A stretch of 64,000 bases of DNA, taken from Oscillospiraceae bacterium (GTDB lineage: Bacteria > Bacillota > Clostridia > Oscillospirales > Acutalibacteraceae). This document shows, in pieces, positions 11,824-63,987 of this stretch. The position numbers and the translations under genes were made by a program. Within the stretch, counting starts at the first letter, position 1, and every line of letters begins with the position of its first letter. The stretch is from assembly GCA_902790325.1 (NCBI GenBank), contig CADARP010000012.1, forward strand, positions 9,475-73,474. Reading direction: 5' to 3'. The notes under the pieces were generated by a model that saw only the letters and a program-made list of their open reading frames with translations, was not told the DNA's origin and searched no databases.

Positions 11824-11824
11824 T

Positions 11825-12538
11825 ATGGCAAACGAATGGATCCTGTACGGCGTGGACGAGCACGACCCGTACTGCCTCAAAAGTCCGCAAGCGCTGACTG
11901 CGTACATCCGCGAGGTCGGCTTCCTGCCGCTGTTCCGGTGCGGTATTCCGGGCTTTTCCGTCGAGGAACGCACCGTGCCGTACTATTGGTGGAGCGGCGA
12001 CGAGCGGCGCGATCCGTGGGAATGGCGTCGGCTTCTTGCCGCGAAAGGCGAGGTCGCATACGGTAAATTTTTCGACGGAAAAGCGGGCTTTATTTCGACC
12101 GACTGGCTGCCTTACTTTGCCAATTACCGGCGCGACGGTTATGATTTCGACGCGCTGTGGGATGAAGGAAAGGCGACGCACCGCCAGAAAAAGATCATGG
12201 ACTGCTTCGCGGACGGACAGGAGCTGTTCTCCCATGTGACGCGCCGCACGGCGGGGTTCGGCAAGGACGGCGAAAAGAATTTCGAGGGTACGGTCACATC
12301 GCTGCAAATGCAGTTGTATCTCGTGATCCGCGACTTCCGCCAGAAGCGCAATAAGGCGGGTCTGCCGTACGGGTGGCATCTGGCGGTCTACACCATGCCG
12401 GAAACGATCTGGGGATACGACCTGCTGTCGTCGGCGTACGGTGAGGAGCCCGCCGCATCGCGCGAGCGCATCTGCCGCCGCCTGCGCGAGGTATACCCCA
12501 TCGCATCGGATGAAGCGGTACAAAAGCTGTTGGGTTAA
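11825..12538 (+). CDS. Conserved hypothetical protein, possibly an AlkZ/YcaQ-related winged-helix protein
   Basis: The ATG at 11825 lies 1 nt after the GH38 stop. FLPLF...IPGFS...DPWEWR...YGKFF..KAGFIS is reminiscent of AlkZ-related proteins; this is recollection only and not verified. Confidence 0.5.
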   Translation: MANEWILYGVDEHDPYCLKSPQALTAYIREVGFLPLFRCGIPGFSVEERTVPYYWWSGDERRDPWEWRRLLAAKGEVAYGKFFDGKAGFISTDWLPYFANYRRDGYDFDALWDEGKATHRQKKIMDCFADGQELFSHVTRRTAGFGKDGEKNFEGTVTSLQMQLYLVIRDFRQKRNKAGLPYGWHLAVYTMPETIWGYDLLSSAYGEEPAASRERICRRLREVYPIASDEAVQKLLG

Positions 12539-12571
12539 AAGTACACGGACAAATCTTTCGGGAGAGATTGC

Positions 12572-14083
12572 ATGAAGATCATTTGCGGCCGCAAGCACGT
12601 TGTCGGTACGGCGGACAGGATGCTGTACGGCCATTTTTTGGAGCACTTTCACAGGCAGATCTATGCGGGCGTTTTCGATCCGTCCTCGCCGTTCGCCGAT
12701 GAAGACGGGTTCCGGCAGGACGTGCTCGACGCGCTGCGGCGCATCCGTACGCCGATCATTCGCTGGCCGGGCGGATGCTTCGTGTCCGCCTACAACTGGA
12801 AATACGGCGTCGGAAAAGACCGCGTCCCCGTTTATGACAAAGCGTGGCGGGTGGAAGAATCGAACCGGTTCGGCACGGACGAGTTTATAAAGCTCTGCCG
12901 CAAGATCGGCTGTGAGCCGTATATCTGCACCAACGCCGGAACAGGGACTGCCGAGGAGATGAGCGACTGGGTCGAATACTGCAATCTGCGCAGCATGGGC
13001 AGATACGCGAAACAGCGCATCGCAAACGGTTTTTCCGATCCGCACCGTGTACGCTACTGGAGCATCGGCAACGAGAACTGGGGCGCACATGAGATCGGCG
13101 CCAAGGAAGCGCGGGAATGGGGGCGTCTGGTGCGGGAATCCGCCAAAATGATGCTGCGTGTCGATCCGACCATCGAGCTGTCCGCCGCATCCATTCCGGA
13201 TCTCGACTGGAACCTCAACCTTCTGCGGGAAGCGGGACAGTACCTGGACTGGATCTCCATCCACGGTTATTGGGGCAACACGAAAAACGGTACCCTGCCC
13301 GACGATTATGATACAGTCATCCTGCACACGGGTGCAGATATCGCCGGCTCCATCGATCGCGTCCGTGCCTATCTGACGGCGGTCGGGCTGGAAAAGAAGA
13401 TCCGGATCGCATTTGACGAGTGGAATCTGCGCGGGTGGTATCACCCGAATCTGATGGATTCGTGGGACCGCGACAGTCTGTGCGGGGAGGACGAGGCGTT
13501 CTACCGCGACAAGGTGCTCGGCGAGCGCGATAAAAACGATATAAACGCGATTTACACGATGGCGGACGCCGTGTTTTCCGCGTCGTTCCTCAATACATGC
13601 CTGCGCAACTGCGATCTGGTGCGCATGGCGTGCTTCTCGCCCGTCGTCAACACGCGCGGCGCGATCTTTACGCATGCGGACGGGATCGTGCTGCGCCCGC
13701 AGTTCTTCGTTTTTGAGATGTATTCCGGTCTGCTGCGGGACACGGTGCTGCAGCAGTGGAGCGAAGACGTGCCGTCGATCAGCGGACACGCAGATGACGA
13801 GACGAAAACCGTCGATGCGATCGACGTCGTCGTGACGTGCGGCGATAAAGGATATGCCGTCTCCGCCGTCAATAAGGACCCGAAGACAGCACACACGGTC
13901 GAACTGCGCTTCCTCGACGGTACGCCGCGCGAAATGCGGATGCACACGCTGAACGGCCCCTCTCCCGACGCATACAACGACGTCGGGCAGACGCAGGTCG
14001 GTGTGACTGTCGGCACGTGGACGCCGTTTGACGGCACGTTCACACTCCCGCCGCACTCTGTCAATGTGATCGAGCTGCGCTGA
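12572..14083 (+). CDS. abfA: Alpha-L-arabinofuranosidase, glycoside hydrolase family 51
   Basis: GHFLEHFHRQIYAGVFDP, IRWPGGCFVSAYNW and IGNENWG motifs, about 500 aa. Confidence 0.85.
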   Translation: MKIICGRKHVVGTADRMLYGHFLEHFHRQIYAGVFDPSSPFADEDGFRQDVLDALRRIRTPIIRWPGGCFVSAYNWKYGVGKDRVPVYDKAWRVEESNRFGTDEFIKLCRKIGCEPYICTNAGTGTAEEMSDWVEYCNLRSMGRYAKQRIANGFSDPHRVRYWSIGNENWGAHEIGAKEAREWGRLVRESAKMMLRVDPTIELSAASIPDLDWNLNLLREAGQYLDWISIHGYWGNTKNGTLPDDYDTVILHTGADIAGSIDRVRAYLTAVGLEKKIRIAFDEWNLRGWYHPNLMDSWDRDSLCGEDEAFYRDKVLGERDKNDINAIYTMADAVFSASFLNTCLRNCDLVRMACFSPVVNTRGAIFTHADGIVLRPQFFVFEMYSGLLRDTVLQQWSEDVPSISGHADDETKTVDAIDVVVTCGDKGYAVSAVNKDPKTAHTVELRFLDGTPREMRMHTLNGPSPDAYNDVGQTQVGVTVGTWTPFDGTFTLPPHSVNVIELR

Positions 14084-50132: not shown

Positions 50133-50801
50133 ATGCAAAGTCTTGGAGACAACATAAAAGGATTGTTTAAAAACTGGAAGACCGTTCCAAACCTGCTGTC
50201 GGCGCTGCGTATCGTCATGGTGCCGATCATGGCTGTGTTGTTCGTGAAGGGGTATCCGCTCTGGGCGGTGTTCGTGCTGTTTTTGTCGGGACTGTCCGAT
50301 TTCGTCGACGGCAAGATCGCCCGCCGCTTCAACCAGATCAGCGACCTGGGCAAGATACTCGATCCGCTTGCCGACAAGTTGACGCAGATCACCGTGGCGG
50401 TGCTGCTGTTCCTGTTTTTCCGCAGTGCGCAGGAGTCACCGGAAATGCGCGCGTTCAGCTGGGTGTTCCTGCTGTTCGTGGGCAAAGAGCTGTTTATGGT
50501 CGTGATGAGCGTCTGGCTGCTGAGTATCGGGCTGCGCCCCGGCGCGGCGGAAATCTACGGCAAGGTCGCTACATTCGCGTATTATCTTGTGATGCTGTTC
50601 ATCGTCGCGTTCGGCCCCGAGGTCGGTGCGTTCCGCAATTTCTGGACAGCGCCTTCGCTGCTTTTGCAGATCCTCGTCGTGGTGTCCGTGGTGCTGTGCT
50701 TCATTGCGCTGTTCAGCTATTTCCCGGGCGTGTGGCGGCTGCTGCAGGAGCGTAAACAGAAACTCCAGCAAGAACAAAATCAACAAGGAGACGATCAATG
50801 A
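50133..50801 (+). CDS. pgsA: CDP-alcohol phosphatidyltransferase (phosphatidylglycerophosphate synthase-like)
   Basis: Signature D-G-x2-A-R-x8-G-x3-D-x3-D: SDFVDGKIARRFNQISDLGKILDPLADK. The ATG at 50133 follows GGAGGAA. Confidence 0.85.
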   Translation: MQSLGDNIKGLFKNWKTVPNLLSALRIVMVPIMAVLFVKGYPLWAVFVLFLSGLSDFVDGKIARRFNQISDLGKILDPLADKLTQITVAVLLFLFFRSAQESPEMRAFSWVFLLFVGKELFMVVMSVWLLSIGLRPGAAEIYGKVATFAYYLVMLFIVAFGPEVGAFRNFWTAPSLLLQILVVVSVVLCFIALFSYFPGVWRLLQERKQKLQQEQNQQGDDQ

Positions 50802-53074
50802 AACAGGTACTTTGCAGCAGATGCAAAAAACGGCCGGCGATGTTTTTTATCACCAAGATGGAAGGCGATAAAAGCACGCAGGAAGGGCTTTGCATGAAGT
50901 GCGCGATGGATATGAATATTGGCCCCATCAAGCAGATGATGCAGAGCATGGGCATATCCGAGGACGAGATTGACGACGTGTCCGCACACTATGACGAGAT
51001 GTTCGGCACGGACGGTTCGTTTGAATCCGGCGGCGCCGGAACGCTGCCGTTTATGCAGATGTTCGGACAAGGCGACGCACAGCAGCCGGATCAGGACGCG
51101 CCCGCCGAAGAAGATAAAAAGAAAAAGCGCAGAAAAGAAAAGAAACCGCAGGAGAAAAAGGAACGTAAATTCCTTTCGCTCTACTGTACGGATCTGACGG
51201 AAAAAGCGCGCGCAGGCAAGATCGACCGCATCATCGGCCGCGAAAAAGAGATCGAGCGCACGGTGCAGATTCTGTGCCGCCGCTCGAAGAACAATCCCTG
51301 CCTGATCGGCGAGCCGGGCGTGGGCAAGACAGCGATCGCCGAAGGACTTGCGATCCGGATCGCATCGGGAAACGTTCCGGTGCGGCTGCTGGATAAAGAG
51401 ATCCATCTGCTGGATCTGACCGCGCTTGTTGCGGGCACCCAGTTCCGCGGCCAGTTCGAGAGCCGCATCAAGGGATTGGTCGAAGAGGTCAAGCAGGAGG
51501 GGAACATTATTCTGTTTATCGACGAGGTGCATTCTCTCGTCGGTACGGGCGACGCCGAGGGTTCCATGAACGCGGCGAATATCCTCAAACCTTCGCTATC
51601 GCGCGGTGAGATCCAGATCATCGGCGCGACGACATTCACGGAATACCGCAAATATATCGAAAAGGATGCGGCGCTCGAGCGGCGTCTGCAGCCGGTCAAG
51701 GTCGAGGAGCCGTCCATCGACGATACGTGCGAGATGCTGGCCGGCGTGAAATCGTACTATGAAAACTTCCATGCCGTGCGCGTGAGCGATTCTCTCATCC
51801 GCAAGGCAGTGGTGCTGTCCGAGCGATACATCAACGACCGTTTCCTGCCCGACAAGGCGATCGATCTGCTCGATGAGGCGTGCACATGCGCGAATCTGCG
51901 CAACAAAGCGATCGGTGAGCTGGAGCTCTGCCGCCGTCGTATCGACGAGCTGAACGCGCAGCAGCAGTCGCTCATGGAGCAGCCGGACCAGACGGATTAC
52001 GAGGAGATCGCCAAGATCAAATCCGAGCTGATCGTCGAGGAAGAAAACCGCGAGAAGCTGGAAGCGCAGGCGGCGGACTGCTATGTGACCGAAGACGACC
52101 TTGCGCATGTTATCCAGCTTTGGACAGGCATTCCCGCCAGCAAGATCATCGAGAGCGATATGCGCCGTCTGGCCGGACTTGCCGACCGGCTGCGCGAAAA
52201 GATCATCGGCCAGGACGAAGCGATCGACGTTGTGGCGGCGGCAGTGCGCCGCAGCCGCGTGCAGATCAGTCCGCGCCGCAGACCGTCGTCGTTCATCTTT
52301 GTCGGCCCCACCGGCGTGGGCAAAACGGAGCTGGTCAAGCAGCTTGCCGCGGAGCTTTTCGATACGCCGGAAACACTCATTCGGCTCGATATGTCCGAGT
52401 TTATGGAGAAGCACTCCGTGTCGCGCATCATCGGCTCGCCGCCCGGTTACGTCGGTTATGACGAAGCGGGACAGTTGACGGAAAAAGTACGCCGCAAACC
52501 GTATTCGGTGATCCTGTTTGACGAGATCGAAAAGGCACATCCGGACGTGATGAACATCCTGCTGCAGATCCTTGACGAAGGGCGCATCACCGACGCGCAG
52601 GGACGCACGGTCAACTTTGAAAACACCGTCATCATCATGACGTCCAACGCAGGGTCCGACCGCAGAGAGGGCGCGCTCGGTTTCGGCAAGACGAAACAGG
52701 AAGCGTCTGCGGAGAAAGCGATGAAGGCGCTGCGGGATTTCCTGCGGCCGGAATTCATCGGACGTGTGGACGAGATCGTGGTATTCCATGATTTGTCTGG
52801 CGAGTCGATGAAAAAGATCGCGAATCTGATGCTCACGGAGCTTGTGGAACCGCTGCGCGACAAGGGCGTGAAGCTGACGTGGACGCAGGACGTTCCGGCT
52901 GCGCTGGCGGAGAAGGCGAGCGGCGGCGAACGCGGTGCGCGTGACCTGCGCAACGCAGTGCGCAAGAACGTCGAGGACAGGATTGCGTCGATCCTGGTCA
53001 ACCGTATTGACACGCCGCCGACCGAAATGCGTGTCACAGCCTTTGCAGGCGATATATTCGTAGAAGCAGACTAA
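50798..53074 (+). CDS. Clp/Hsp100-family AAA+ ATPase (ClpC/ClpA-like, two NBDs) with an N-terminal C4 zinc-ribbon in place of Clp_N repeats
   Basis: CSRCKK...CMKC at the N-terminus and a KKKKRRKEKKPQEKKERK linker. NBD1 GEPGVGKTAI and NBD2 GPTGVGKTEL, with a sensor/arginine-finger region. Confidence 0.85.
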   Translation: MKQVLCSRCKKRPAMFFITKMEGDKSTQEGLCMKCAMDMNIGPIKQMMQSMGISEDEIDDVSAHYDEMFGTDGSFESGGAGTLPFMQMFGQGDAQQPDQDAPAEEDKKKKRRKEKKPQEKKERKFLSLYCTDLTEKARAGKIDRIIGREKEIERTVQILCRRSKNNPCLIGEPGVGKTAIAEGLAIRIASGNVPVRLLDKEIHLLDLTALVAGTQFRGQFESRIKGLVEEVKQEGNIILFIDEVHSLVGTGDAEGSMNAANILKPSLSRGEIQIIGATTFTEYRKYIEKDAALERRLQPVKVEEPSIDDTCEMLAGVKSYYENFHAVRVSDSLIRKAVVLSERYINDRFLPDKAIDLLDEACTCANLRNKAIGELELCRRRIDELNAQQQSLMEQPDQTDYEEIAKIKSELIVEEENREKLEAQAADCYVTEDDLAHVIQLWTGIPASKIIESDMRRLAGLADRLREKIIGQDEAIDVVAAAVRRSRVQISPRRRPSSFIFVGPTGVGKTELVKQLAAELFDTPETLIRLDMSEFMEKHSVSRIIGSPPGYVGYDEAGQLTEKVRRKPYSVILFDEIEKAHPDVMNILLQILDEGRITDAQGRTVNFENTVIIMTSNAGSDRREGALGFGKTKQEASAEKAMKALRDFLRPEFIGRVDEIVVFHDLSGESMKKIANLMLTELVEPLRDKGVKLTWTQDVPAALAEKASGGERGARDLRNAVRKNVEDRIASILVNRIDTPPTEMRVTAFAGDIFVEAD

Positions 53075-53377: not shown

Positions 53378-53437
53378 AAATCGTTGATAAATAAGGGATT
53401 GCGACGAGCCACAGGTTCAAAATGAATACGTTATACG

Positions 53438-53481
53438 GCGCAGAAGAGCACAATTTGAGGCTTTTCTGCGCTGCTTTTTTT
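53438..53481 (+). terminator. Second terminator-like hairpin inside the island junction
   Basis: 11-bp stem gcgcagaagag / cttttctgcgc (one G-T pair) followed by tgcttttttt. There is no obvious upstream gene for it to terminate. Confidence 0.45.
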
Positions 53482-53498
53482 ATGGGCTTTCGGCAAAA

Positions 53499-53545
53499 TT
53501 GCAACCGGTTGCAGGGGGTTGCAGGGGGTTGCAAGGGGGTTGCAT
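53499..53545 (+). repeat. Helically phased direct-repeat array (5 x TTGCA; core GGTTGCAGGGG) beginning with the palindrome TGCAACCGGTTGCA
   Basis: TTGCA occurs at 53499, 53509, 53519, 53529 and 53540 (spacing 10, 10, 10, 11 bp): ttgcaaccgg ttgcaggggg ttgcaggggg ttgcaaggggg ttgca. An AT-rich tract follows, and the array lies 75 nt upstream of the HTH gene. Confidence 0.85.
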
Positions 53546-53619
53546 TTCAAAAAATTTTAAATTTAGGGGGGAAACATTGGCCGTTTTCGTGTCCGTGTAG
53601 TGGAAGGGAGTGTTTTTTC

Positions 53620-54003
53620 GTGACGGAACGAGATAAATCTATCATCCTTGCTATGCGAGAAAACGGCGAATCATATTCGGAAATTGCGAACGCTCTCCGG
53701 ATTCCTGTCGGAACCGTAAAGGCATTATGCAGCCGCGAAAAGAAAACGGACACGAACGCGGGTGTCCTCTGTCTGACCTGTGGCGCACCAATCCCTGCGT
53801 TATCTCACGGGAAAGCGAAGAGGTTCTGCAGTCGACGCTGCTACAACAAGTGGTGGCACGCAAACCATACCGATCGGACGACGTACAACCGCACCTGCCC
53901 GGTCTGCGGTAAGGTGTTCACCGTCCGATCCAATAAGTGTCAGAAGTATTGCTCGGCAGATTGCTATCAGGCGGCGCGAAAGGCAGGCGGCGAACATGAA
54001 TAA
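53620..54003 (+). CDS. Sigma-70 region-4-like HTH protein with a C-terminal double zinc-ribbon (recombinase-module accessory/regulator)
   Basis: GTG at 53620 after GGAAGGGAG. ENGESYSEIANALRIPVGTVKALCSR is the HTH. CLTCG...CSRRCYNKWWH...CPVCG...YCSADCY are the Cys clusters. The upstream part of the track ORF (53422-53619) reads through the repeat array and is rejected. Confidence 0.7.
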   Translation: MTERDKSIILAMRENGESYSEIANALRIPVGTVKALCSREKKTDTNAGVLCLTCGAPIPALSHGKAKRFCSRRCYNKWWHANHTDRTTYNRTCPVCGKVFTVRSNKCQKYCSADCYQAARKAGGEHE

Positions 54004-54166
54004 GGATCTATTTGAATCGCTGCTTGCCTACAAAAGCATCATGGCACAGGCGAAGGTTCTGCTCCGGCGGGGCATCATAACGAAACGAGAGTACGCGCAT
54101 TTTGATACAATGTTCACCAAAAAGTACGGGTTATCTTTGGATAGTATTTTTCGGGAAAAGAGTTGA
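53996..54166 (+). CDS. Small (56 aa) SHOCT-like protein
   Basis: The ATG at 53996 overlaps the end of the HTH gene by 8 nt. LLRRGIITKREYAHFDTMFTKKY resembles the SHOCT G-x-I[TS]-x-x-E[YF] motif. Confidence 0.5.
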   Translation: MNKDLFESLLAYKSIMAQAKVLLRRGIITKREYAHFDTMFTKKYGLSLDSIFREKS

Positions 54167-54212
54167 AGTGTAGGCGGTTTAGAGCAAATATGGAGGCGGA
54201 GGTGAAAACGCA

Positions 54213-55511
54213 ATGCAAATCAAAAAACTGCCGACACTTCCGACGCTCCAGAAGAAAAAACAGGTTGCCGCATACGCACGTGTGTCAACGGGCAAGGACG
54301 CAATGCTGCACTCTTTGTCGGCGCAGGTCAGCTATTACAGCGCATACATCCAAAAACAGCCGGAATGGCTGTACTGCGGTGTGTATGTGGACGAAGCGAT
54401 CACAGGGACCAAAACGGAACGACCGGAGTTTCAGCGGCTTCTTGCCGACTGCCGTTCCGGAAAGATCGATATGATCATCACAAAGTCCATTTCCCGCTTT
54501 GCGCGAAACACTGTCACACTGCTTGAAACGGTGCGTGAATTAAAGGCACTTGGCATCGACGTATTTTTTGAAGAGCCGAATATTCACACGTTGAGCGCAG
54601 CCGGTGAAATGATGCTGACGATTCTGGCGTCGGTCGCACAGGAAGAGAGCCGTATGACGAGTGAGCGCATGAAATGGCGCGTGCGGAAGAATTTTGAAGA
54701 AGGCGTTCCATGGAATGTGACGATCCTCGGCTACACTCTACGCAACGGGCGCTTTGTAGTCGTACCGGAAGAAGCCGCGGTCGTGCGTCAGATTTTCGAC
54801 CTGTATATGGAGGGAAAAGGCTACGCCGCTATCGCCGACATACTGAACGCGGCTGACGCGAAAACGCGGTACGGACGCACGTGGAACCACACATCCGTGC
54901 GCTGGGTGCTGCGGAACTACGCCTACACCGGAAACCTTCTCCTGCAGACGACATACTCCGAAAACCATATCACGAAGCGCATGCGTCCAAATACGGGCGA
55001 AATGCCCATGTACCACGCGCAAGGTACACACGAGGCGATCATACCGCAAGAACTCTATGATGCCGTACAGCGCGAAATAGAGCGTCGTGACGCGAAGTAT
55101 TCTGACGCCGATAAACGCAGACAGACGCCGCTGGCGGGAAAAGTGTTCTGCGGCATCTGCGGCAAACGCTGTAGACGTAAGAAACGGCATGATAGGCAGG
55201 TGTGGATTTGCAACACGTTCAACGTGCACGGAAAAGACGCCTGTCCTGCAAGAGCAGTACCGGAGGATATTCTGATGCCGCTGGTTGAGGGCATCGACGT
55301 TGAACGAATTGATATTTGTAATAATAATCTGATCCGGATTCAGACAACCGGCGGTGACGTAGTGGAGCGCACATGGGCGCTGACGTCACGCCGCGACAGT
55401 TGGACACCGGAGATGAGAGAGAAAGCGAGGGAAAGAGCCAATGGCAGTTGTAACCAAAATACCAGCGACGAAAAACAAATTCACGTCGGCGTCGGCATCG
55501 CAAACGCATAA
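54213..55511 (+). CDS. Large serine recombinase 1 (resolvase catalytic domain, recombinase domain, zinc ribbon)
   Basis: VAAYARVSTGKD (catalytic Ser), IDMIITKSISRFARNT, recombinase-domain YGRTWNHTSVRWVLRNYAYTG, zinc ribbon CGICGKRC...CNTF...CP. Confidence 0.9.
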   Translation: MQIKKLPTLPTLQKKKQVAAYARVSTGKDAMLHSLSAQVSYYSAYIQKQPEWLYCGVYVDEAITGTKTERPEFQRLLADCRSGKIDMIITKSISRFARNTVTLLETVRELKALGIDVFFEEPNIHTLSAAGEMMLTILASVAQEESRMTSERMKWRVRKNFEEGVPWNVTILGYTLRNGRFVVVPEEAAVVRQIFDLYMEGKGYAAIADILNAADAKTRYGRTWNHTSVRWVLRNYAYTGNLLLQTTYSENHITKRMRPNTGEMPMYHAQGTHEAIIPQELYDAVQREIERRDAKYSDADKRRQTPLAGKVFCGICGKRCRRKKRHDRQVWICNTFNVHGKDACPARAVPEDILMPLVEGIDVERIDICNNNLIRIQTTGGDVVERTWALTSRRDSWTPEMREKARERANGSCNQNTSDEKQIHVGVGIANA

Positions 55512-57021
55512 ACGCCGCGTCGCCGCATACGCCCGTGTATCCACGGATAAGGACGAGCAGCTCACCAGCTATAAGGCGCAGGTGGACTATTACAAAAAAT
55601 ACATTCAGAACAACGATGAGTGGGAATACGTCGATGTGTATGCAGACGAAGGCATCACGGGGACGAGCACGAAAAGCCGTAAGAGATTTAACGAAATGAT
55701 CGCCGACGCGCTTGCCGGAAAGATCGACTTGATTATCACAAAATCGGTTTCCCGTTTCGCTCGGAACACGGTGGACACGCTCGTCAACATCCGCAAGCTG
55801 AAAGATGCCGGTGTCGAGTGTTTTTTTGAAGAACAGGGCATTTGGACGTTCGATAGCACGGGTGAACTGATGATCACTATGCTCTCCTCTATCGCACAGG
55901 AAGAAGCCCGCAATATTTCCGAGAACGTTACATGGGGACACCGTAAGCGGTTTGAGGACGGCAAGATTATGCTGGCGTACAAACGCTTTCTCGGTTATGA
56001 CCGTGGTGAAGATGGTAAGCCGGTCATCAATCCGGAAGAAGCTGAGATTGTACGTCAGATTTACAGATGGTTTATTGAAGGCAAGACGCCGTTCATGATC
56101 TGTAAGGAATTGGAGGCGCTGGGGATTAAAACGCCCGGTGAGAAAGAGAAATGGGGGCGGAGTACGGTTATCAGTATTCTCTCCAATGAAAAATACAAAG
56201 GTGATGCCCTGTTGCAGAAGAGCTTCACGGTGGATTTCCTGACGAAAAAGACCAAAAAGAATGAGGGGGAAGTTCCGCAGTATTACGTCGAGGGCAGCCA
56301 TCCTGCCATTATCAATCCGAAGGAATGGGATTATGTGCAGGCGGAACTTGCCCGCCGCAAAATCATCGGTAAAGCGTACAGTGGTACGAGTGTATTCTCT
56401 TCTCGATTGGTCTGCGCCGACTGCGGTGATTTCTTCGGGCAGAAAGTATGGCACTCCACTGATGCGTACAGAAAAGAGATATGGCGATGCAACCACAAAT
56501 TTGACGGCGATAAGCAATGCAGCACGCCACACCTTGTCGTGGAGCAGATTCAGGCTCTATTTCTGCAGGCGTACAACGAACTGATGCGTGATCGCAGTCA
56601 GGTGATCGCCGACTGTGGAGTTATGCGTGACGCTCTTTTGGATACTACAGACATTCAGAAGCAGATCGCAAAGGTCGATGAGGAGATGGAGATCACCGCA
56701 GCTTTGGTCGCTGCCGCCGTCAAAGAGAACGCAACGTTGCCTCAGTCGCAGGAAGAATACAATGAGAAATATGCTGCGCTTGAGGAACGGTTCTTGGAAC
56801 AGAAAGACAAACGCGCCGCCCTTGAGGCGAAGATCGCAGAACGAAAAGCGAGAGCGCATGAACTGGATTTGTTCACATACGCTCTCGCGGAAAGTGATTT
56901 AATTGTGTCAGAGTGGGATGAACAGTTGTGGTTGACACTGATCGAAAAAGGCACTGTCCTGCCGGAAGGCAGCATCAGTTTTCTGTTCAAAAACGGAACG
57001 GAGATATTGGCGGCAATGTAA
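55441..57021 (+). CDS. Large serine recombinase 2 (with a C-terminal coiled coil)
   Basis: VAAYARVSTDKDEQ, IDLIITKSVSRFARNT, WGRSTVISILSNEKYKGD, zinc ribbon CADCG...CNHKF...C. Its start overlaps recombinase 1 by 71 nt. Confidence 0.9.
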   Translation: MAVVTKIPATKNKFTSASASQTHKRRVAAYARVSTDKDEQLTSYKAQVDYYKKYIQNNDEWEYVDVYADEGITGTSTKSRKRFNEMIADALAGKIDLIITKSVSRFARNTVDTLVNIRKLKDAGVECFFEEQGIWTFDSTGELMITMLSSIAQEEARNISENVTWGHRKRFEDGKIMLAYKRFLGYDRGEDGKPVINPEEAEIVRQIYRWFIEGKTPFMICKELEALGIKTPGEKEKWGRSTVISILSNEKYKGDALLQKSFTVDFLTKKTKKNEGEVPQYYVEGSHPAIINPKEWDYVQAELARRKIIGKAYSGTSVFSSRLVCADCGDFFGQKVWHSTDAYRKEIWRCNHKFDGDKQCSTPHLVVEQIQALFLQAYNELMRDRSQVIADCGVMRDALLDTTDIQKQIAKVDEEMEITAALVAAAVKENATLPQSQEEYNEKYAALEERFLEQKDKRAALEAKIAERKARAHELDLFTYALAESDLIVSEWDEQLWLTLIEKGTVLPEGSISFLFKNGTEILAAM

Positions 57022-57420: not shown

Positions 57421-57852
57421 TCAAGGGTTTGCAGCAACATTCTTCTCATACAAGAATTGTAAATCCTGTAATACGCGCTTCTCCAGTAATTCTTGATCAC
57501 CTCCAGCGGAATTAATAATGTCTCTCAGCTTTTTGAATCCGGACTCAGCACACCGTTCTGCTTCATCGTAATTGATTTCGCGATTTGCATATCGATCGAT
57601 GTCGTCTTTATTTTCTGGGATCCCAAGCAAAATTGAAGCAAACAGTGCAAGGTCATATGATTTAATGTTTTTGAGCAAGAAATACCCGTCTTTTTTTCCT
57701 TTCATTTCTTCTGGTGAGTCTAAACCAAGTGCCGTTGCTAAAAGGAAGATGTCTTTTGCGTCCATCATATGCATCCCAAGTGTATTGTTTTCATTGCACT
57801 CATGAAGCAGACCATCTCGCAGGGAACTATTGATGAAAATTCTATCACGCAT
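57421..57852 (-). CDS. Hypothetical protein, DndE-sized and possibly DndE-like (143 aa from ATG 57852; the track ORF extends to 57960)
   Basis: The ATG at 57852 overlaps the last codons and TGA of the upstream ATPase gene (GATGCGTGA), which suggests translational coupling. It sits directly after a DndD-like gene, as dndE does. KKDGYFLLKNI...LALFASILLG is loosely reminiscent of DndE; this is recollection and needs an HMM check. Confidence 0.45.
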   Translation of the reverse strand: MRDRIFINSSLRDGLLHECNENNTLGMHMMDAKDIFLLATALGLDSPEEMKGKKDGYFLLKNIKSYDLALFASILLGIPENKDDIDRYANREINYDEAERCAESGFKKLRDIINSAGGDQELLEKRVLQDLQFLYEKNVAANP

Positions 57853-59872
57853 CGCCTTTACCAATCCCTTCAATTTGTTCTTCGTTATCAGAGAGTGCAA
57901 TATCTCGAATAGATGCTGCTCTTTCATCGTAAAGACTTTGGACTTCATTGGAGTATTCATCCGGAGTGAAAAGCATAATAATCTGCTTATACCTCGAAAC
58001 CTTTAAGAGTTCCGCAGCCATGTTTGCGCGATTTGAATCGGAAACCCTTCCCAATGGTGAGTCGACAACAAGGGGACAGTTTTTGCCTGATGCATCATGA
58101 ATTGCGAGAGTAAAAGAATATGCCAATGCCATGTATTCTGTAGCACTCAAGGAACCAGTCATCTGATTACCTTGCATATTATATACAGTTAATTCATATT
58201 TGTCGTTGATGTCGATTTTTCCAAAGGTATTCTTTTTCCAAATCATGGCGTTGAAACGTTCCCAAGTCTGACGCTGAATGTCCTCTTTGATCTCATCCAT
58301 AATGGCTTTTTCGACAGCGTCGTACTGTGAATTCAGAGTTCTAAAGGCGACCACTTCCCTCGACAACAGATCTTTCCTTTGCCTCTTTTCCTCAATTTTA
58401 CCTCTCTCCGCTATTTTTGTGGCTAAAGTTTCAGAGAGCCTTTTAATATCACTTTGGTTCAATGCCAGACGTTGTTGCAAAGATACAAGCTCATCGTTTG
58501 CATTTTTGCGTTCTGATTCTATTTTTCGTACGTCAATTCCGCCACTTTCGTCAGAGTATCGAGCTAAAAAAGCGCTTATATCATCGAGAGCCTTTTGTGT
58601 TTCTGCGATGGTTTCGGTATAATAATTATCTCGTTTCACCAGCTTTTTATATTCAGATGGGAACTCTTTGCAGCGGGCGATAATTGTTTCAAGGCCCCCT
58701 TTAATCTCCATCAGAAAATTTGATGTCGCTGAAGAAACATCCAACTCATCTAATAGCTTTTGCAAGTGCTGAATGGCCTTTTCATCAAGTGCGCCGTTGC
58801 AGATAGGACAGAATTTTGCATGATCAGATAGCAGAGATTGAATCTGCTCTTTATCGATATTGGGTGGTAATGTGCCTGCATTTTGCTTTTCGTGAATTAG
58901 GTCTAATGCAAACTTCACGCGCGGATAAAAACTTAGAAGCGTCCAGTATGTAGTAATAAATGCGTTTTTCTCCGCAATAAAGCTTTCATAATCGCTTTGG
59001 AGTTCTTTTAGCTCTTTACTCAAGGCTAACCGTTTTCCGATGTTTAGCCTAATAGGTGCGTATCCTTGCAAAGTTGCGTCTGCATCTGCAATTATACGTC
59101 GTAGTTCAGGCAACCGAGCTTCAATCTCGCTGTTTTGTGCCTTAAGATCGGATATTTTTCCTTCAAGAATGCGGATTTCGTCTGCTAAATCCGGAGCGCT
59201 TTCCTTCCCCAGTTTGGTAGCTTGCCGATACTTTTCATCGGCCATTGTACGCACATGATTGCTGGCGTTCCTCAAAAGCGTAACTTGCGAAATGTTGAAA
59301 ATTGAAGACTTTATCTTTTCGGACTTTTCGCTTGTAAAGTAGCTTTTTAGGTTTTCACCATCAAAGAAGTAGTAGTCATAAATTGCCTCATCGAAGTATT
59401 GCTTAACGATACTTTGAACTTCAGCTTCATCTTCGATAACAACAGAGTTCGCAGCGCTGTCGGTTGGGGTCTTGATTACCTTCAACTTTGACTGCCCTGG
59501 TCGTGCGCTTTTTGCATTGGTCAGGGGACTTTCAATCACGAAGAAAGATTGAGTGCGTTCAAATACTATGATTTCCCCGTCATTGTTCAAGGTCAAGCGG
59601 GCAGTAACGCTAAGCGAGTCTTTTGGATTTGAGCGCTGAACGAGTGCACTGTTAACTATAGGAAGCGCTTTATCTTTGTCACTCAGATAATGCTCTGACG
59701 CATAAAGACACCAGAGAATGCCATTTAGAAAAGTTGTTTTTCCCGTTCCGTTTTTTGCGCGAAGAATGTGCAAATCACAGTCCTCTCCACTTTGGAAGGA
59801 CACATTAACAGACCTGTACTGGCGATAGTTTTCAAATTCAACTTTAGTTATTCTGATCATCACTATCACCAT
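57845..59872 (-). CDS. SMC/Rad50-like ABC ATPase of the DndD type
   Basis: N-terminal IRITKVEFENYRQY, Walker A AKNGTGKTTFLNGILWCLY and FFDGE. A long coiled-coil middle contains CPICNG (hook-like CxxC, residues 355-358). LSATEYMALAYSF is the ABC signature. Walker B/D-loop PLVVDSPLGRVSDSNR is followed by QIIMLFTPDE. The alternative start ATG 59860 gives MIRITKV. Confidence 0.75.
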   Translation of the reverse strand: MVIVMIRITKVEFENYRQYRSVNVSFQSGEDCDLHILRAKNGTGKTTFLNGILWCLYASEHYLSDKDKALPIVNSALVQRSNPKDSLSVTARLTLNNDGEIIVFERTQSFFVIESPLTNAKSARPGQSKLKVIKTPTDSAANSVVIEDEAEVQSIVKQYFDEAIYDYYFFDGENLKSYFTSEKSEKIKSSIFNISQVTLLRNASNHVRTMADEKYRQATKLGKESAPDLADEIRILEGKISDLKAQNSEIEARLPELRRIIADADATLQGYAPIRLNIGKRLALSKELKELQSDYESFIAEKNAFITTYWTLLSFYPRVKFALDLIHEKQNAGTLPPNIDKEQIQSLLSDHAKFCPICNGALDEKAIQHLQKLLDELDVSSATSNFLMEIKGGLETIIARCKEFPSEYKKLVKRDNYYTETIAETQKALDDISAFLARYSDESGGIDVRKIESERKNANDELVSLQQRLALNQSDIKRLSETLATKIAERGKIEEKRQRKDLLSREVVAFRTLNSQYDAVEKAIMDEIKEDIQRQTWERFNAMIWKKNTFGKIDINDKYELTVYNMQGNQMTGSLSATEYMALAYSFTLAIHDASGKNCPLVVDSPLGRVSDSNRANMAAELLKVSRYKQIIMLFTPDEYSNEVQSLYDERAASIRDIALSDNEEQIEGIGKGDA

Positions 59873-60032
59873 CCATTTCCTTTAGGTAATCAATAACCAG
59901 CCGCTCATATGTTTCCTTGAACCTATGATTCCCCTTATCCTCTTCTTCAAGAATGGCGAGCATAAGCATTTTTAGATCTTCCGGCACATCGAGCGCAACA
60001 ATTTTTTCAAATATCTTCTCACTGATAGGCAT
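59844..60032 (-). CDS. Small acidic protein (62 aa), unknown function
   Basis: The ORF overlaps the helicase stop by 14 nt and the ATPase start by 17-29 nt, so it fills the junction exactly. The C-terminus is DGDSDDQNN. No family recognised. Confidence 0.45.
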   Translation of the reverse strand: MPISEKIFEKIVALDVPEDLKMLMLAILEEEDKGNHRFKETYERLVIDYLKEMDGDSDDQNN

Positions 60033-62106
60033 CTTCGCTTACCCCGTTTCTTTTAAAGATTTCAATCACTTCATCTCGGTTTATTGCGTTATCTGCGATT
60101 TGCATTGCGCGACGGAATTCTTTTTGGAGGATCCTAATATCTATTTCACTACCACTGGACGGGCTGACAATTAAATCATAGATGTGAGAAAAGGATTTTC
60201 CTTTGCATGGCCTAATAACCCTACCAACTCTTTGGACGAATTCTCGTGGATTTGTGCTGCTTGCCATCAAAATTGCAATTCTTGCTGTGGTAATATCGAT
60301 TCCTTCGTCCAAACATTTGATTCCTATCAGAACTTGCACACGCCCATTTCTAAACTGATCAATGGCTTCTTGCCGCTCTGTATTGCCATGGACGCCTACT
60401 TTTTTCGAGGCCGATATTTCTTCAGTGATTTTGCAACGTGATATTTCGTGACTACTGAGCATATTCAGTAGAGGGGACACCTGTTTATCTGTTGCAAAAA
60501 TAATTGTGTCTTTGATGCGAGACTCATTATTGAGCTGTAAAACAATCTCTTCAACAGACGCGAGTTTCATTTCTGCATTCTTTAAGATATTAGCTCTTCG
60601 AATCAGGAGCATGTTCAAACGCTCAACGTCAACTTCTTCCGCAGAAGAAACAACGGCAATCTCACGGCTCAACTTCGAATAGTCTCTACACTCTGATTCT
60701 GACAGTTCAACAAAAACAGGATGATAATAGAACGGATTAAGAAACGGCTTTCCGGTTAAAGGATTAATTGTTCCCAACGCGTCTTTAATTGTGAATTCAA
60801 ATGATTGATTGCCGAAATACTCCCGAATAATACTGGTTCCATATTCATCAAACATGCGTTCCGGTGTTGCACTTAATCCAACACGATAGCGGTATATATC
60901 TAATAATGCCTGTTTCTGATGATCTGAGCCAATAGCATGAACTTCGTCGCAGATAAACATAATTTCCGCTTTGCCATGATTCTTGCTGATGATTTCAATA
61001 AAAGCGTTGCTCGAAACCGTATTATGCGTTGTGTATACTATCGCATTTTTATAACGATCTGCGTTAAGATCTAATAAGCATATTTCAAGATCCTTTTTCC
61101 ACCTGGGATTACTCCCGTCGATAATACGCGAACGATCACTTTCAATACCAAGTGATTCGATATCCGTTTGCCACTGCCGTGACAAGGTGTTTTGCGGAGT
61201 CGCAATAATCACGAGAAGCCTCTTGGTATGCGAAAGAAGAGTCAGCATGCATCCAATTGCTGTCCTCGTTTTTCCTGTTCCAGTTGCCATCTCCATGAGG
61301 AGACTACGGTCGTTTTCAAGCCATTTATTCACAGCCTTTTGCTGATGGCTAAATAGCGAAATCTCATTTACTTTTTCTTTTTGTCTATCCCTGTATTTTT
61401 TCATTATTGAGAGATCGCTCACATTGCGTGGCGCCACCTCAATAATCTTGTGTGTTATTGACTCAGGAATGGTATATACAGCTGCAACATCGTCCCTTTC
61501 GCCATTCCAAAACTCATTAAATTTTTTTAAATCAGCAAGCAAATACTCTCTTTGACCAGGTTCCCATGATTTGAACGTTTTGAATTCCTCAATGTTACTT
61601 AACCATGCTTGCGCAGACTCATTGATCGACCCACTGAAAGATATCATGTCTCCATTAGAATCGTAACCAATACCAATCTTTTGGTGGAATAAACTATCTG
61701 ACGAATGTCGGTCAACGACGATTTTAATATCGAGTTTTTTATTTGCCAGTAACCAAGCGAGGGCTTGTAAGTTGTCCAATTGTTTAAATGCTTCTATATC
61801 GAACTGCTGAAAAAAAGAAAGCGCTTCAGGTGCGACATTCGATTGGGATTCTCTTAGAACGCGTGCGTCCTGCTCCGATAACCGTGGAGAAATCAGTAGA
61901 CGCATAAACCCGCCATTTCGTATTAACCCTTCTATCCCTTTTGAAGCGACGGCAAGACTGCTGCTGCTAAAGAATCCTGCAATCCGGAAATATTGCTTCG
62001 TCTGCTCAAGCATCGGAATGTAAAAAGCGTCAAGAAGCTGAGAACGATCGCTGGATGTTTCATAGCTGATTTTTATATCCAGATTTCTGTAACCCATCAT
62101 TGCCAC
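60019..62106 (-). CDS. PLD-family (HKD) nuclease domain fused to an SF2 DEAH-box helicase (ResIII plus Helicase_C)
   Basis: The HKD motif FHQKIGIGYDSNGDMISFSGSINES is at residues 140-164 (nt about 61621-61686). Helicase motif I MATGTGKT (274-281), motif II ICDEVH (385-390), motif III GLSATPER, motif VI QRVGRVIRP. An in-frame ATG at 62100 forms an ATGA overlap with the upstream stop and may be the true start. Confidence 0.85.
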   Translation of the reverse strand: MAMMGYRNLDIKISYETSSDRSQLLDAFYIPMLEQTKQYFRIAGFFSSSSLAVASKGIEGLIRNGGFMRLLISPRLSEQDARVLRESQSNVAPEALSFFQQFDIEAFKQLDNLQALAWLLANKKLDIKIVVDRHSSDSLFHQKIGIGYDSNGDMISFSGSINESAQAWLSNIEEFKTFKSWEPGQREYLLADLKKFNEFWNGERDDVAAVYTIPESITHKIIEVAPRNVSDLSIMKKYRDRQKEKVNEISLFSHQQKAVNKWLENDRSLLMEMATGTGKTRTAIGCMLTLLSHTKRLLVIIATPQNTLSRQWQTDIESLGIESDRSRIIDGSNPRWKKDLEICLLDLNADRYKNAIVYTTHNTVSSNAFIEIISKNHGKAEIMFICDEVHAIGSDHQKQALLDIYRYRVGLSATPERMFDEYGTSIIREYFGNQSFEFTIKDALGTINPLTGKPFLNPFYYHPVFVELSESECRDYSKLSREIAVVSSAEEVDVERLNMLLIRRANILKNAEMKLASVEEIVLQLNNESRIKDTIIFATDKQVSPLLNMLSSHEISRCKITEEISASKKVGVHGNTERQEAIDQFRNGRVQVLIGIKCLDEGIDITTARIAILMASSTNPREFVQRVGRVIRPCKGKSFSHIYDLIVSPSSGSEIDIRILQKEFRRAMQIADNAINRDEVIEIFKRNGVSEDAYQ

Positions 62107-62792
62107 CTTATTTGATCTTTAAGCGGAAGATCCTCAAGTATTAGGTTCATAATAATCTCATTATTATGTTTCCTTCTAATAATCGTTTGCCCAGAAAGTG
62201 CAACTGATACAGTATCAATATAAGACGCATATCCGTTCGTCTTTGCTTCGTAGATTAGTGTTTTAATCAATGGATTTCTTACCGCTAACCGTTTGATTAG
62301 TTCGTGCTTTTCCTCGACAGATAGCATTGTAGACACACTGCCTAATGAAGATATTCGCACCATATTACATTTTCGATCTGGCTCTCGTCCAATAAGAACA
62401 AGAGTGAGCATCGCGGCAGTTTTGGCATGGTTTTCTCCGTATTTGATACATGCATACTGCTGTGATGCGTGTGTTAGCCTTTGACCGGCCTCTTCGTAAG
62501 AAAGCCGATTTTCTTCAAATTCCAAAATGGTGCACAACGTGTCTGTCGCATCATCGAGTTTGCTGTATTGGAAAATATCTTTTGGCGATAACGGATAAGG
62601 ATGGTTGATGGCGTCGAGTAACCTTAAAATAGGAATTGAAAGCAATAACCTTATTGCCTCAACAACATCATCGTTATCACCCACGGTTAGTGTTTCTAAA
62701 GATTCTGGTGAATAGTCGAGATACTGTTGTAAAAAAACATTTTCTTTTTCCGTGTTTCCTGTCGCCAAAAGCCAATCCCTATAAAAGCTCAT
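62097..62792 (-). CDS. Hypothetical protein (231 aa), no recognisable family
   Basis: The ORF is tightly packed between the radical SAM and PLD-helicase genes (19-nt gap upstream, overlapping stop/start downstream). The AT-rich codon usage matches its neighbours. Confidence 0.6.
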   Translation of the reverse strand: MSFYRDWLLATGNTEKENVFLQQYLDYSPESLETLTVGDNDDVVEAIRLLLSIPILRLLDAINHPYPLSPKDIFQYSKLDDATDTLCTILEFEENRLSYEEAGQRLTHASQQYACIKYGENHAKTAAMLTLVLIGREPDRKCNMVRISSLGSVSTMLSVEEKHELIKRLAVRNPLIKTLIYEAKTNGYASYIDTVSVALSGQTIIRRKHNNEIIMNLILEDLPLKDQIRWQ

Positions 62793-62811: not shown

Positions 62812-63987
62812 TTAATCTTTCATATGAAGATCCTGATAATCTTCATATCGCAAATCAAAGTATCTTTCTGCGATTTCTGGGTGCTTTGCCTCAAAATCAA
62901 GCATTGCTTTATATGATGAGCACAGTGTCCCCTCGGTTTTGTGAAGTTTCTGATTTTCTTCGCAAAAACGTCTGAAGCTCATTTTTTTATATATGCTCGG
63001 CTGGTTGCCCCAACGTGCAATGGCAATATACATACCGGCGTATTCGGACTCTTTCCATGGCTTATAGTTTTTGTCTTGATAACGCATGATATAAGGGAGA
63101 CACTGATAATGCATTAACAATTCCAGCCGCTTGAAACAGTTTTCAATGTCAATCGCATCCGTTCCTTCAAAACCAACAAGAACATAAAACTTGATATTCC
63201 GTGCTTTGGAGTATCTTCTGATCATCTCAAGTTTTTGCTTGATCAGTTCATAATCTGCGATATTATCAAATGCGAAAGTATAGTCTCCGTCGTATTTTGC
63301 CGCAAACAGTATTTTACATTTTTCATCTGTTAAAAGTCTCTCGTCGAGCCCTTGCTTGAATTTAAATGGGTACCCAGTATTGATTAACTGCTGAAGTAGT
63401 TCCCTCCAGTTTGGATAGCCGAGAAAATTGTCATCCAATAAGCAAATTGCCCTGCGGTTTCTGTCAAAAAACTCATCAAGGGGACTACTTGGGAAAACAT
63501 GGTCGTATTTTTTGTTTACGCAGAACTCACATTTCCGAAAACATCCGCGAGTTAAGAATCCTATACTATAGTCCGTATACTCTTTGAACTTAACCAGGAA
63601 AGCCTTTCTGTTAAAGGACTCGCCCCTCTCTTGTTCTGCTTTTCTTACTTCACTTTCAATCCATTCATCATACAGAGTATAATCAGGCATGTGGTGTTCG
63701 ATTCTCGGATCGAGGTTGGGTGCTTTGTCAAAAAAGAATCCCGTCCCTCCATAGCTCACTTTATCCCTATCCTCCATATAGTGCTGTATCCATTCAGGAA
63801 CGGGGGTATCTGTAAACACCTTTGAAATATAAATATGATCGTATTCGTGTATATCCACTTGTTGTAAAATTAATGTAACTTCAGCACCTTGCTCCTTCCA
63901 GTATCCAGATATCTTCTCACATATGAGGTTTGGAAAACGGTGCTTTTTTCTGCCTATTAAATCGGCGTCTATGATTCCTATTTTCAT
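62812..63987 (-). CDS. Radical SAM enzyme with an N-terminal roughly 140-aa Rossmann/B12-binding-like domain
   Basis: The canonical 4Fe-4S/SAM motif GFLTRGCFRKCEFCV (C149-x3-C153-x2-C156; nt 63520-63543) follows the N-terminal domain MKIGIIDADL.... The ATG at 63987 has GGGAAGTGA upstream. Only 13 nt of upstream sequence are in the window. Confidence 0.8.
   Translation of the reverse strand: MKIGIIDADLIGRKKHRFPNLICEKISGYWKEQGAEVTLILQQVDIHEYDHIYISKVFTDTPVPEWIQHYMEDRDKVSYGGTGFFFDKAPNLDPRIEHHMPDYTLYDEWIESEVRKAEQERGESFNRKAFLVKFKEYTDYSIGFLTRGCFRKCEFCVNKKYDHVFPSSPLDEFFDRNRRAICLLDDNFLGYPNWRELLQQLINTGYPFKFKQGLDERLLTDEKCKILFAAKYDGDYTFAFDNIADYELIKQKLEMIRRYSKARNIKFYVLVGFEGTDAIDIENCFKRLELLMHYQCLPYIMRYQDKNYKPWKESEYAGMYIAIARWGNQPSIYKKMSFRRFCEENQKLHKTEGTLCSSYKAMLDFEAKHPEIAERYFDLRYEDYQDLHMKD

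Follow-up and report, generated by a model that had tools for sequence, protein, structure and literature searches.

The restriction module PbeABCD is reportedly owed to Xiong et al. 2019, and CxC ABC systems are said to have been first described by Krishnan et al. 2020. In a re-analysis of Dnd and Pbe systems, PbeABCD was classed as the 'CxC ABC ATPase-DndE-anchored' system, composed of the nuclease-helicase PbeA, the small and rapidly evolving PbeB, the ABC ATPase PbeC and the DndE cognate PbeD (Rakesh, Aravind and Krishnan 2024, PMC10853773). Known Pbe systems occur with the phosphorothioation genes dndCDEA, with cytosine methylases or alone, and the classical partner of both PbeABCD and DndFGH is a phosphorothioate mark on DNA (PMC10853773). 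The same authors allowed that some systems may 'mediate entirely different modifications', and they mention radical S-adenosylmethionine (SAM) enzymes only with regard to DndC (PMC10853773). The analysis presented here concerns 64,000 nt of an Oscillospiraceae bacterium genome (assembly GCA_902790325.1, contig CADARP010000012.1, positions 9,475 to 73,474 of the forward strand), called the window throughout, in which a gene for a divergent radical SAM enzyme, RS, stands at the head of an operon of Pbe-type genes.

As in PbeABCD, this operon has PbeA, a small protein, PbeC and a protein at the PbeD position in the canonical order; it differs in that its 5' partner is the radical SAM enzyme together with a second protein, p231, and that no linkage to dndCDEA was found at the locus. 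The nearest precedent for radical chemistry on DNA is phage M6 gp53, a phage-encoded radical SAM isomerase that acts post-replicatively on DNA in thymidine hypermodification; its authors describe it as the first known case of a radical SAM enzyme introducing a modification into DNA (Lee et al. 2021, PMC8989533). However, gp53 is a relative of spore photoproduct lyase that acts on amino-acid-decorated 5-hydroxymethyldeoxyuridine in a kinase/transferase pathway and, unlike RS, has no N-terminal Rossmann domain and no link to a restriction module.

Literature searches on radical SAM enzymes in connection with DndFGH, DndD, restriction-modification (R-M), DNA modification and phage returned, in the library searched, no description of the RS family and no link between a radical SAM enzyme and Pbe, DndFGH or R-M-like systems. 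The restriction side of the system is of a known kind; no description seems to exist of the RS/p231 arm, of its modular association with four restriction modules or of its counterpart in phages. On the family comparisons and structure models given below, we lean, slightly beyond an even judgement, towards RS being the self-marking DNA-modification arm of an R-M-like system, an arm that phages would have copied.

RS motif, conservation and predicted fold

The features of RS to which the text refers are as follows (coordinates in the window):

62812..63987, minus strand: RS, divergent radical SAM enzyme encoded by the operon's first gene, 391 aa (open reading frame and translation)
63520..63543, minus strand: codons of the CX3CXPhiC [4Fe-4S]/SAM-binding motif, C149-F-R-K-C153-E-F155-C156 (translated sequence, alignments)
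63688..63987, minus strand: N-terminal flavodoxin/Rossmann-like, B12-binding-like domain of RS, about residues 1-100 (DSSP strand/helix pattern, Foldseek, invariant columns)

RS starts with ATG, and a Shine-Dalgarno-like GGGAAG lies 7 nt upstream. A preceding reading of the DNA letters by a model (the sequence-only reading) had placed a CxxxCxxC cluster at residues 149-156; the three cysteines, C149, C153 and C156, are indeed present there in the context GCFRKCEFC, and F155 supplies the aromatic residue ahead of the final motif cysteine, matching canonical radical SAM enzymes. The triad is conserved at 95% in an alignment of 43 diverse homologues, which are 35-51% identical, and at 100% in 131 closer ones. 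Since every other cysteine of RS is conserved at no more than 47% in the diverse alignment, neither family alignment (43 and 131 sequences) carries a SPASM or auxiliary-cluster cysteine signature, and the earlier remark that no SPASM-type C-terminal cysteine cluster is visible was borne out. The sole cysteine in residues 1-140, C23, is kept in 33% of the diverse members.

About 47 residues of RS are invariant, and they are spread across both domains. The N-domain contributes D7, P19-N20-L21, K25, F58, G80-G-T-G83 and E97; further along the chain are P101-D-Y103, Y106, D185-D-N187, Q212-G-x-D215-x-R217 and F238-A-F-D241, followed by R287, Y299, M301 and N328. The observation goes far beyond chance, as the family is large: at E<=1e-3 it comprises 5,813 clusters (90% clustering), all of them unnamed or 'hypothetical' and lacking a precomputed Pfam domain, and 1,769 representatives at 50% identity. 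RS looks like an active enzyme and is the founding example of an unannotated family. Inteins mostly occur in enzymes of DNA and nucleotide metabolism. Within the family, at least one homologue (P0174) has a LAGLIDADG intein-like insertion, and the annotation of a homologue on an archaeal plasmid reads radical SAM enzyme with intein (LC711081.1 24554-25036).

The profile search proposed in the sequence-only reading came back empty for the window copy, which matched neither PF04055 nor PF02310 in Pfam at E<=0.1. PF04055 is matched by 25 of the 43 diverse relatives, sub-threshold only (best 5.7e-4), and PF02310 by none of the family members scanned. That PF04055 misses RS reflects the reach of the profile and is compatible with the evidence from the fold. 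Two weak Pfam matches in the searches with RS and p231, Herpes_ORF32 and TnsA-like_N, fell below threshold and were dismissed as noise. No NCBIfam model rose above noise for RS, the best hint being MiaB-like-B (E 0.046), and sequence and profile searches of the PDB were empty for RS, p231 and the PbeD family. PHROG 9298, a 'radical SAM domain protein', matched RS at 3.6e-50. None of 5,027 PADLOC defence models matched RS, and the PADLOC candidate (PDC) families matched neither RS nor p231.

The AlphaFold2 model of RS, built from 131 sequences (pLDDT 93.1, pTM 0.89), begins with a strand-helix domain (about residues 1-100), which two long helices link to six strand-helix units at residues 140-302, and it ends in a helical C-terminus, with residues 310-391 all helical. 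Foldseek searches of the PDB, with alignments over the whole length of the model, returned MiaB (7mjz, 1e-7), MgmA (9ccb, 1.2e-7), RimO (4jc0, 2.6e-6) and MtaB, all at probability 1.0; the E values for these four ranged from 1e-7 to 2e-5, with moderate TM-scores of 0.45-0.51. In a viral structure library, RS matched unnamed phage proteins, an MtaB-like protein and COG1032 'Fe-S oxidoreductases'. The model agrees with the architecture read from the letters, a Rossmann-like N-domain ahead of the radical SAM domain, as is typical of class B and methylthiotransferase-type enzymes. Because the motif, its conservation, the AlphaFold2/Foldseek results, PHROG 9298 and the sub-threshold PF04055 matches of relatives all point the same way, we take RS to be a genuine, very divergent radical SAM enzyme with a modelled (beta/alpha)6 barrel and predicted catalysis.

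The domain order of RS is that of class B and methylthiotransferase enzymes. With class B (cobalamin-dependent) methylases such as MgmA (9ccb), RS shares a Rossmann-type N-domain ahead of the radical SAM barrel, but it is only 12-14% identical to them, lacks a PF02310/PF04055 match at threshold, and their known substrates are small molecules, peptides and proteins, not DNA. MiaB, MtaB and RimO give the best overall fold matches, have the same two-domain order and act on macromolecules; the three cysteines of their N-domain auxiliary [4Fe-4S] cluster and their TRAM domain are missing in RS. Membership in the methylthiotransferases was rejected because the N-domain auxiliary-cluster cysteines are not conserved, and because the C-terminus is helical with no TRAM domain. 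The spacing S55-x-V...G80-G81 resembles the SxL...GG of the classical B12 motif when the sequence alone is read, and RS may bind cobalamin.

Viperins carry their cluster motif N-terminally in proteins of about 300 aa. In RS the motif lies at residue 149 of 391, and the empty PADLOC and NCBIfam searches agree with the earlier judgement that RS is of neither the viperin nor the QueE type. What RS has in common with viperins, Dpd QueE and Ophion OpnA is that all are radical SAM enzymes in anti-phage loci; Ophion, composed of a radical SAM enzyme, a PHP protein and a phosphoribosyltransferase (PRTase), is unrelated in composition to the RS operon (bioRxiv 2025.09.30.679545).

Comparative genomics of the RS family

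GTDB, with one genome per species, was scanned with a 14-sequence RS alignment; 449 RS relatives were found, and the best 80 loci were analysed. Together with the window's own element and three phage records this gave 84 loci, among which the following classes were counted:

Class A, 25 loci plus 3 truncated: RS-p231-PbeA-(small protein)-PbeC-PbeD, the arrangement of the window
Class B, about 11 loci: RS, ParB-like protein, 136-aa protein, SNF2 helicase, ParB-like protein, p231
Class C, 6 loci: RS-p231, then a DUF262(GmrSD_N)-HNH protein
Class D, 4 loci: RS::p231 fusion, then DndF, DndG and DndH (PADLOC 5.8e-146, 1.2e-115 and 0)
Class E, 21 loci: prophage-type loci

In classes A-D, RS recurs on the 5' side of four unrelated restriction modules. 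Cultured carriers of RS are Clostridium cavendishii DSM 21758, C. hydrogeniformans DSM 21757, Lachnospiraceae bacterium JC7, Anaerovibrio sp. JC8, Peptacetobacter hominis and Eubacterium plexicaudatum ASF492. Class D, in which the fusion gene immediately precedes full-length DndF, DndG and DndH, is carried by Clostridium hydrogeniformans, C. cavendishii, a Clostridium metagenome-assembled genome (MAG) and a Fibrobacter MAG (L079 10001-20408; L071, L051, L024), and no Dnd modification gene was present in the class D stretches among the recurring neighbour families scanned. The neighbour-joining RS tree intermixes classes A-D, so that RS behaves as a swappable cassette; the window RS is sister to a class C copy. 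Measured against the window copies, RS has a median identity of 61% and PbeA one of 46%, while p231, PbeC and PbeD reach 33-34%. These family comparisons portray RS as a conserved, exchangeable catalytic cassette, and by analogy the conservation pattern of RS versus p231 resembles that of the catalytic versus the specificity parts of R-M systems. The sequence-only reading had left three roles open (direct modification of DNA, synthesis of a modified nucleotide, or action on an invading nucleic acid), and the comparative genomics favours the first without proving it.

Several loci showed additional features. The class B operon is found at L009 9986-15734 and in L012, L013, L016, L022, L025, L028, L049, L053, L061 and L075; its first ParB-like protein has about 335 aa, the 136-aa protein is without a family match, the SNF2 helicase of about 490 aa is ZorD/DpdE-like (1e-47), and the components match only scattered PADLOC models, from different systems. 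Two RS genes occur in L063 and two p231 domains each in L049 and L051, i.e., duplications or a fused plus a separate p231, and L052 has a convergent RS-like gene with a partial p231-like region (11256-12368, minus strand). WYL-WCX-type regulators often accompany defence systems; a gene for one adjoins the RS operon in several loci, among them L011 (8759-9859, minus strand), L012 and L015. A metagenome scan with PbeA as query yielded only 4 loci. The hosts named in the records are, as far as is known, almost all anaerobes, as expected for an oxygen-labile radical SAM enzyme.

RS homologues in phages

RS homologues are present in 17 GenBank phage records, whose hosts are given as Oscillospiraceae, Methanomassiliicoccales, Clostridium tetani, Bacteroides and Phocaeicola; one record is a Marinitoga virus. 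In class E, RS adjoins a ParB-N6/N4 DNA methyltransferase, a C5 cytosine methyltransferase or both; the terminase genes lie downstream of this group, usually behind an Amidoligase_2 gene. A survey of 80 IMG/VR loci gave the same picture for viral genomes: a ParB- or C5 methyltransferase lies within 5 kb of RS in 57 loci, directly adjacent to it in 39 (ParB-methyltransferase) and 19 (C5 methyltransferase), and Amidoligase_2 lies within 5 kb in 35. All 47 examined invariant residues, the motif cysteines included, are common to the phage and the defence RS, and the two therefore most likely catalyse the same reaction.

The order of the phage block is ParB-N6/N4 methyltransferase, RS, C5 methyltransferase, Amidoligase_2, small proteins including DUF7698, and terminase (L004, L040, L043, L050, L058 and IMG/VR L106-L169). 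One speculation is that the C5 methylase, RS and the amide-forming ligase could jointly make up an anaerobic pathway of cytosine hypermodification. A PAPS-reductase (DndC-superfamily) gene lies directly upstream of RS in some prophages (L065, L070, L073), and in L004 a PAPS-reductase-domain protein is encoded past the terminase (12428-13080).

Partner protein p231

The protein that accompanies RS in the window is encoded directly downstream of it:

62097..62792, minus strand: p231, partner protein, 231 aa, start 19 nt past the RS stop codon

Many homologues of RS carry p231 as a C-terminal fusion, and the two proteins are therefore taken to act together. A p231 hidden Markov model detected the protein in 43 of the 80 GTDB loci, all of defence type, and never in the prophage-type class E. 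Across 23 class A loci, the similarity of p231 to the window copy followed that of PbeA, PbeC and PbeD (Spearman 0.86, 0.87 and 0.76, respectively) and not that of RS (0.04), values that are descriptive and not formal probabilities, as they stem from one reference sequence and related loci. In the p231 tree the sequences group by restriction class. In these comparisons p231 has the behaviour of an adaptor that evolves fast and goes with the restriction module, and it would be key to the coupling of RS with the system.

AlphaFold2 predicts a mostly helical protein (pLDDT 95.5) with a helix-helix-hairpin unit at about residues 99-147, and an invariant KYGENHxK occupies residues 117-124 in the putative recognition helix. 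Foldseek gave weak matches (E 0.03-1) to ROQ, MarR and ORC, which are winged-helix types, so that 'winged helix' is a weak, model-derived label; p231 had no Pfam, PADLOC or PHROG match and nothing meaningful in NCBIfam. In L034 (3591-6998), L064 and L088 (616-4160), a slightly longer RS of about 425 aa is followed directly by PbeA; in such p231-less Pbe loci either the adaptor is dispensable or a divergent equivalent was undetected.

Operon structure and the mobile island

Downstream of p231 the operon continues with four further genes, and the low-GC (guanine-cytosine) region that contains it is bordered by recombinase genes:

60019..62106, minus strand: PbeA, HKD (PLD-type) nuclease fused to a superfamily 2 (SF2) helicase, 695 aa, start overlapping the end of p231 (PADLOC PbeA 1.4e-196)
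59844..60032, minus strand: small acidic protein at the PbeB position, 62 aa with 17 D/E and 8 K/R, overlapping the end of PbeA by 14 nt and also the start of PbeC
57845..59872, minus strand: PbeC, DndD-like CxC-clade ABC ATPase with a coiled coil, 675 aa (PADLOC PbeC 2e-82)
57421..57852, minus strand: PbeD-position protein, probable DndE cognate, 143 aa, overlapping PbeC by 8 nt
54213..57021, plus strand: two tandem large serine recombinases at the island edge (Resolvase, Recombinase and Zn_ribbon_recom domains in the identical element)

The six minus-strand genes are tightly packed, with one 19-nt gap and otherwise overlaps of 1-29 nt. The neighbours of RS form a Pbe-type system. PbeA additionally matched NCBIfam dnd_restrict_1 (1.5e-100), Pfam ResIII and Helicase_C and, weakly, PLDc_2, and it has an HKD-like HQKIGIGYD...GSIN at residue 141, GTGKT at 276 and DEVH at 387. 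PbeC further matched PADLOC DndD (1.1e-32), NCBIfam DndD (1.6e-27) and Pfam AAA_23; its cysteine pair in the coiled coil, CPIC at residue 355, is CxxC and not literally CxC. The link of RS to a nuclease-helicase and a DndD-like ATPase that had been proposed earlier holds at the level of the operon, although RS is not the direct neighbour of the helicase gene, as p231 lies between them. The sole Dnd match among the five operon proteins scanned was that of PbeC to DndD; no model of a Dnd modification protein (DndA-C, E) matched any of them.

The 62-aa acidic gene is annotated by public gene callers, and similarity searches recover a counterpart in the corresponding place in 11 of 24 loci of Pbe type. 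At the PbeD position, the open reading frame extends upstream to 57960; the gene is called as 143 aa on L002 and L003, and a family of 140-150 aa is conserved at this position in 21 loci. PbeD itself is a DndE cognate with two RHH domains. PADLOC PbeD was matched by 2 of 20 members of that family (best 9.4e-5), the window copy not being one of them.

On L001, a public contig with an identical element, RS is preceded by a gap of about 350 bp; in the next 6.7 kb lie genes for a 103-aa protein, an SRAP-domain protein and a Fic-domain protein, along with two smaller open reading frames. No PAPS-reductase, desulfurase or other Dnd-type domain is recorded among the genes called in these 6.7 kb. Since only the gap and small open reading frames lie ahead of it, RS leads the operon, as the sequence-only reading had assumed from the part visible in the window. 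Scans for promoters and terminators did no better than on shuffled sequence.

GC content is 39-41% from about 57 kb to the window end, compared with 50-60% in the remaining window. Between a ClpB-like gene (50798-53074) and this low-GC island lie genes for a sigma-70 region-4 protein, a SHOCT-domain open reading frame and the two recombinases (53422-57021, plus strand). The recombinase stretch probably marks one end of a mobile element carrying the defence operon, with the other end beyond the window. The remaining window encodes a dockerin protein, glycoside hydrolases, MutS, MutL and the ClpB-like ATPase; a 1,572-aa protein at 101-4819 (plus strand) ends in a type I dockerin, with GH38 and arabinofuranosidase-like genes nearby. 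The dockerin and glycoside hydrolase genes suggest a cellulosome-bearing, fibre-degrading anaerobic Firmicute as the host.

Discussion

If RS is a self-marking arm, p231 would dock it onto the DNA-scanning complex of PbeC and PbeD or onto specific DNA sites, and RS would reductively cleave SAM at its [4Fe-4S] cluster. The resulting 5'-deoxyadenosyl radical, possibly with cobalamin as a methyl carrier, would lead to a covalent mark on host DNA, placed at a C-H position beyond the reach of ordinary methyltransferases, and self DNA so marked would be spared by PbeA. The phages of these anaerobes would use a p231-free RS beside their own DNA methyltransferases as a counterfeit, marking their genomes broadly, a use that can be likened to that of phage orphan methyltransferases. 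The fold and motif of RS, its place in the operon, its fusion with p231, its shuffling among four restriction modules, the co-evolution of p231 with these modules and the phage setting are shown by the results above; DNA as the substrate, the protective logic and the chemistry are what we infer, and the specific chemistry of the mark is proposed with much less confidence than the marking role itself. The fullest version of the proposal is one that we hold tentatively, somewhat short of an even judgement: RS and p231 would be the first R-M-like immunity whose self mark is made by a radical SAM enzyme, possibly a cobalamin-dependent one, giving a new DNA modification in gut and rumen anaerobes (e.g., C-methylation or another C-H functionalisation of base or sugar) that is read by Pbe, DndFGH, DUF262-HNH and ParB/SNF2 modules and counterfeited by phages.

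Several points weigh against a self-marking role. The evidence for it consists of genomic and structural prediction throughout, the solved folds nearest to RS belong to enzymes of tRNA, a ribosomal protein or a protein glutamine and not of DNA, and no profile match backs the use of cobalamin by RS, PF02310 being unmatched. As p231 is acidic (pI 5.3) and its resemblance to winged-helix proteins is not significant (best E 0.03), DNA binding by p231 is weakly supported, and some Pbe-linked RS copies come without a detectable p231 (L034, L064, L088). GmrSD-like enzymes usually attack modified DNA, and this partner class would conflict with self-marking unless it is SspE-like. Rakesh et al. argue that DndFGH can stand alone without a cognate modification (PMC10853773), and adjacency to DndFGH therefore need not imply a protective mark.

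An alternative that we think unlikely is that RS, possibly with p231, makes a messenger or a chain-terminating nucleotide or small molecule, which activates the linked nuclease/ATPase modules or poisons phage replication, like viperins or the proposed action of Ophion OpnA. Small molecules or interference with nucleic acids are the route by which radical SAM enzymes work in defence systems that have been validated (Ophion, bioRxiv 2025.09.30.679545), DndF is predicted to hold a nucleotide-sensing kinase-like domain, and a diffusible product would explain how one conserved enzyme can serve four unrelated effector modules. However, the phage RS, which has the same invariants, sits in a methyltransferase/packaging block and not in accessory (moron) positions, p231 co-evolves with DNA-handling proteins and looks like a winged-helix adaptor, and RS matches none of the PADLOC defence models.

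It is also quite unlikely, in our estimate, that RS acts on a protein, as a maturase of p231 or of the restriction complex, or that it is a radical effector damaging foreign DNA presented by the helicase/ATPase module. In defence loci p231 is the sole constant companion of RS and is often fused to it, MgmA methylates protein glutamine and RimO modifies a ribosomal protein, and action on invading nucleic acid was the third role put forward in the sequence-only reading. Nevertheless, the p231-free phage RS keeps all catalytic residues, so p231 cannot be the universal substrate; four unrelated partner architectures make a shared protein substrate unlikely, and a DNA-damaging effector would be odd as a conserved phage gene beside methyltransferases.

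RNA as the substrate is very unlikely. An enzyme modifying tRNA or rRNA in the manner of MiaB/MtaB or Cfr/RlmN, which defence islands and phages would have taken up to adjust translation during infection, would fit the top structural matches, which are tRNA methylthiotransferases, as well as the sole NCBIfam hint (MiaB-like-B, E 0.046) and the RNA-binding ROQ domain among the weak fold matches of p231, but the conserved N-domain cysteines and the TRAM domain are both absent from RS, and its constant neighbours are DNA enzymes (HKD nuclease-helicase, DndFGH, DUF262-HNH, ParB-like proteins and DNA methyltransferases).

We give hardly any weight to a replacement of DndA/DndC or SspA/SspD by RS and p231, which would then install a phosphorothioate mark read by the Pbe, DndFGH and SspE-like partners: these modules are known from phosphorothioate systems, dnd/ssp modification genes are missing from the operon and the 6.7 kb upstream on L001, and a use of SAM at a 4Fe-4S cluster has been reported for DndC (quoted in PMC10853773), but conservation of the SAM-cluster triad alone leaves RS without an auxiliary cluster and without a persulfide-carrying cysteine pair as in sulfur-inserting radical SAM enzymes and DndC, the operon has no PP-loop or desulfurase partner, and exchange of oxygen for sulfur at phosphorus is atypical of radical SAM chemistry.

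If RS does mark self DNA, radical chemistry would join methylation, phosphorothioation and 7-deazaguanine as a means of labelling it, and abundant gut anaerobes, like the phages that infect them, would probably turn out to contain a new modified nucleoside. Phosphorothioation genes are absent beside many Pbe and DndFGH modules, and the RS family is a concrete candidate for the source of another modification in such systems. A mark of this kind could cause unexplained signals in sequencing kinetics and act as a barrier to genetic manipulation in Clostridia, and the combination of a conserved catalytic cassette with a swappable adaptor could become a tool for site-directed C-H functionalisation of DNA.

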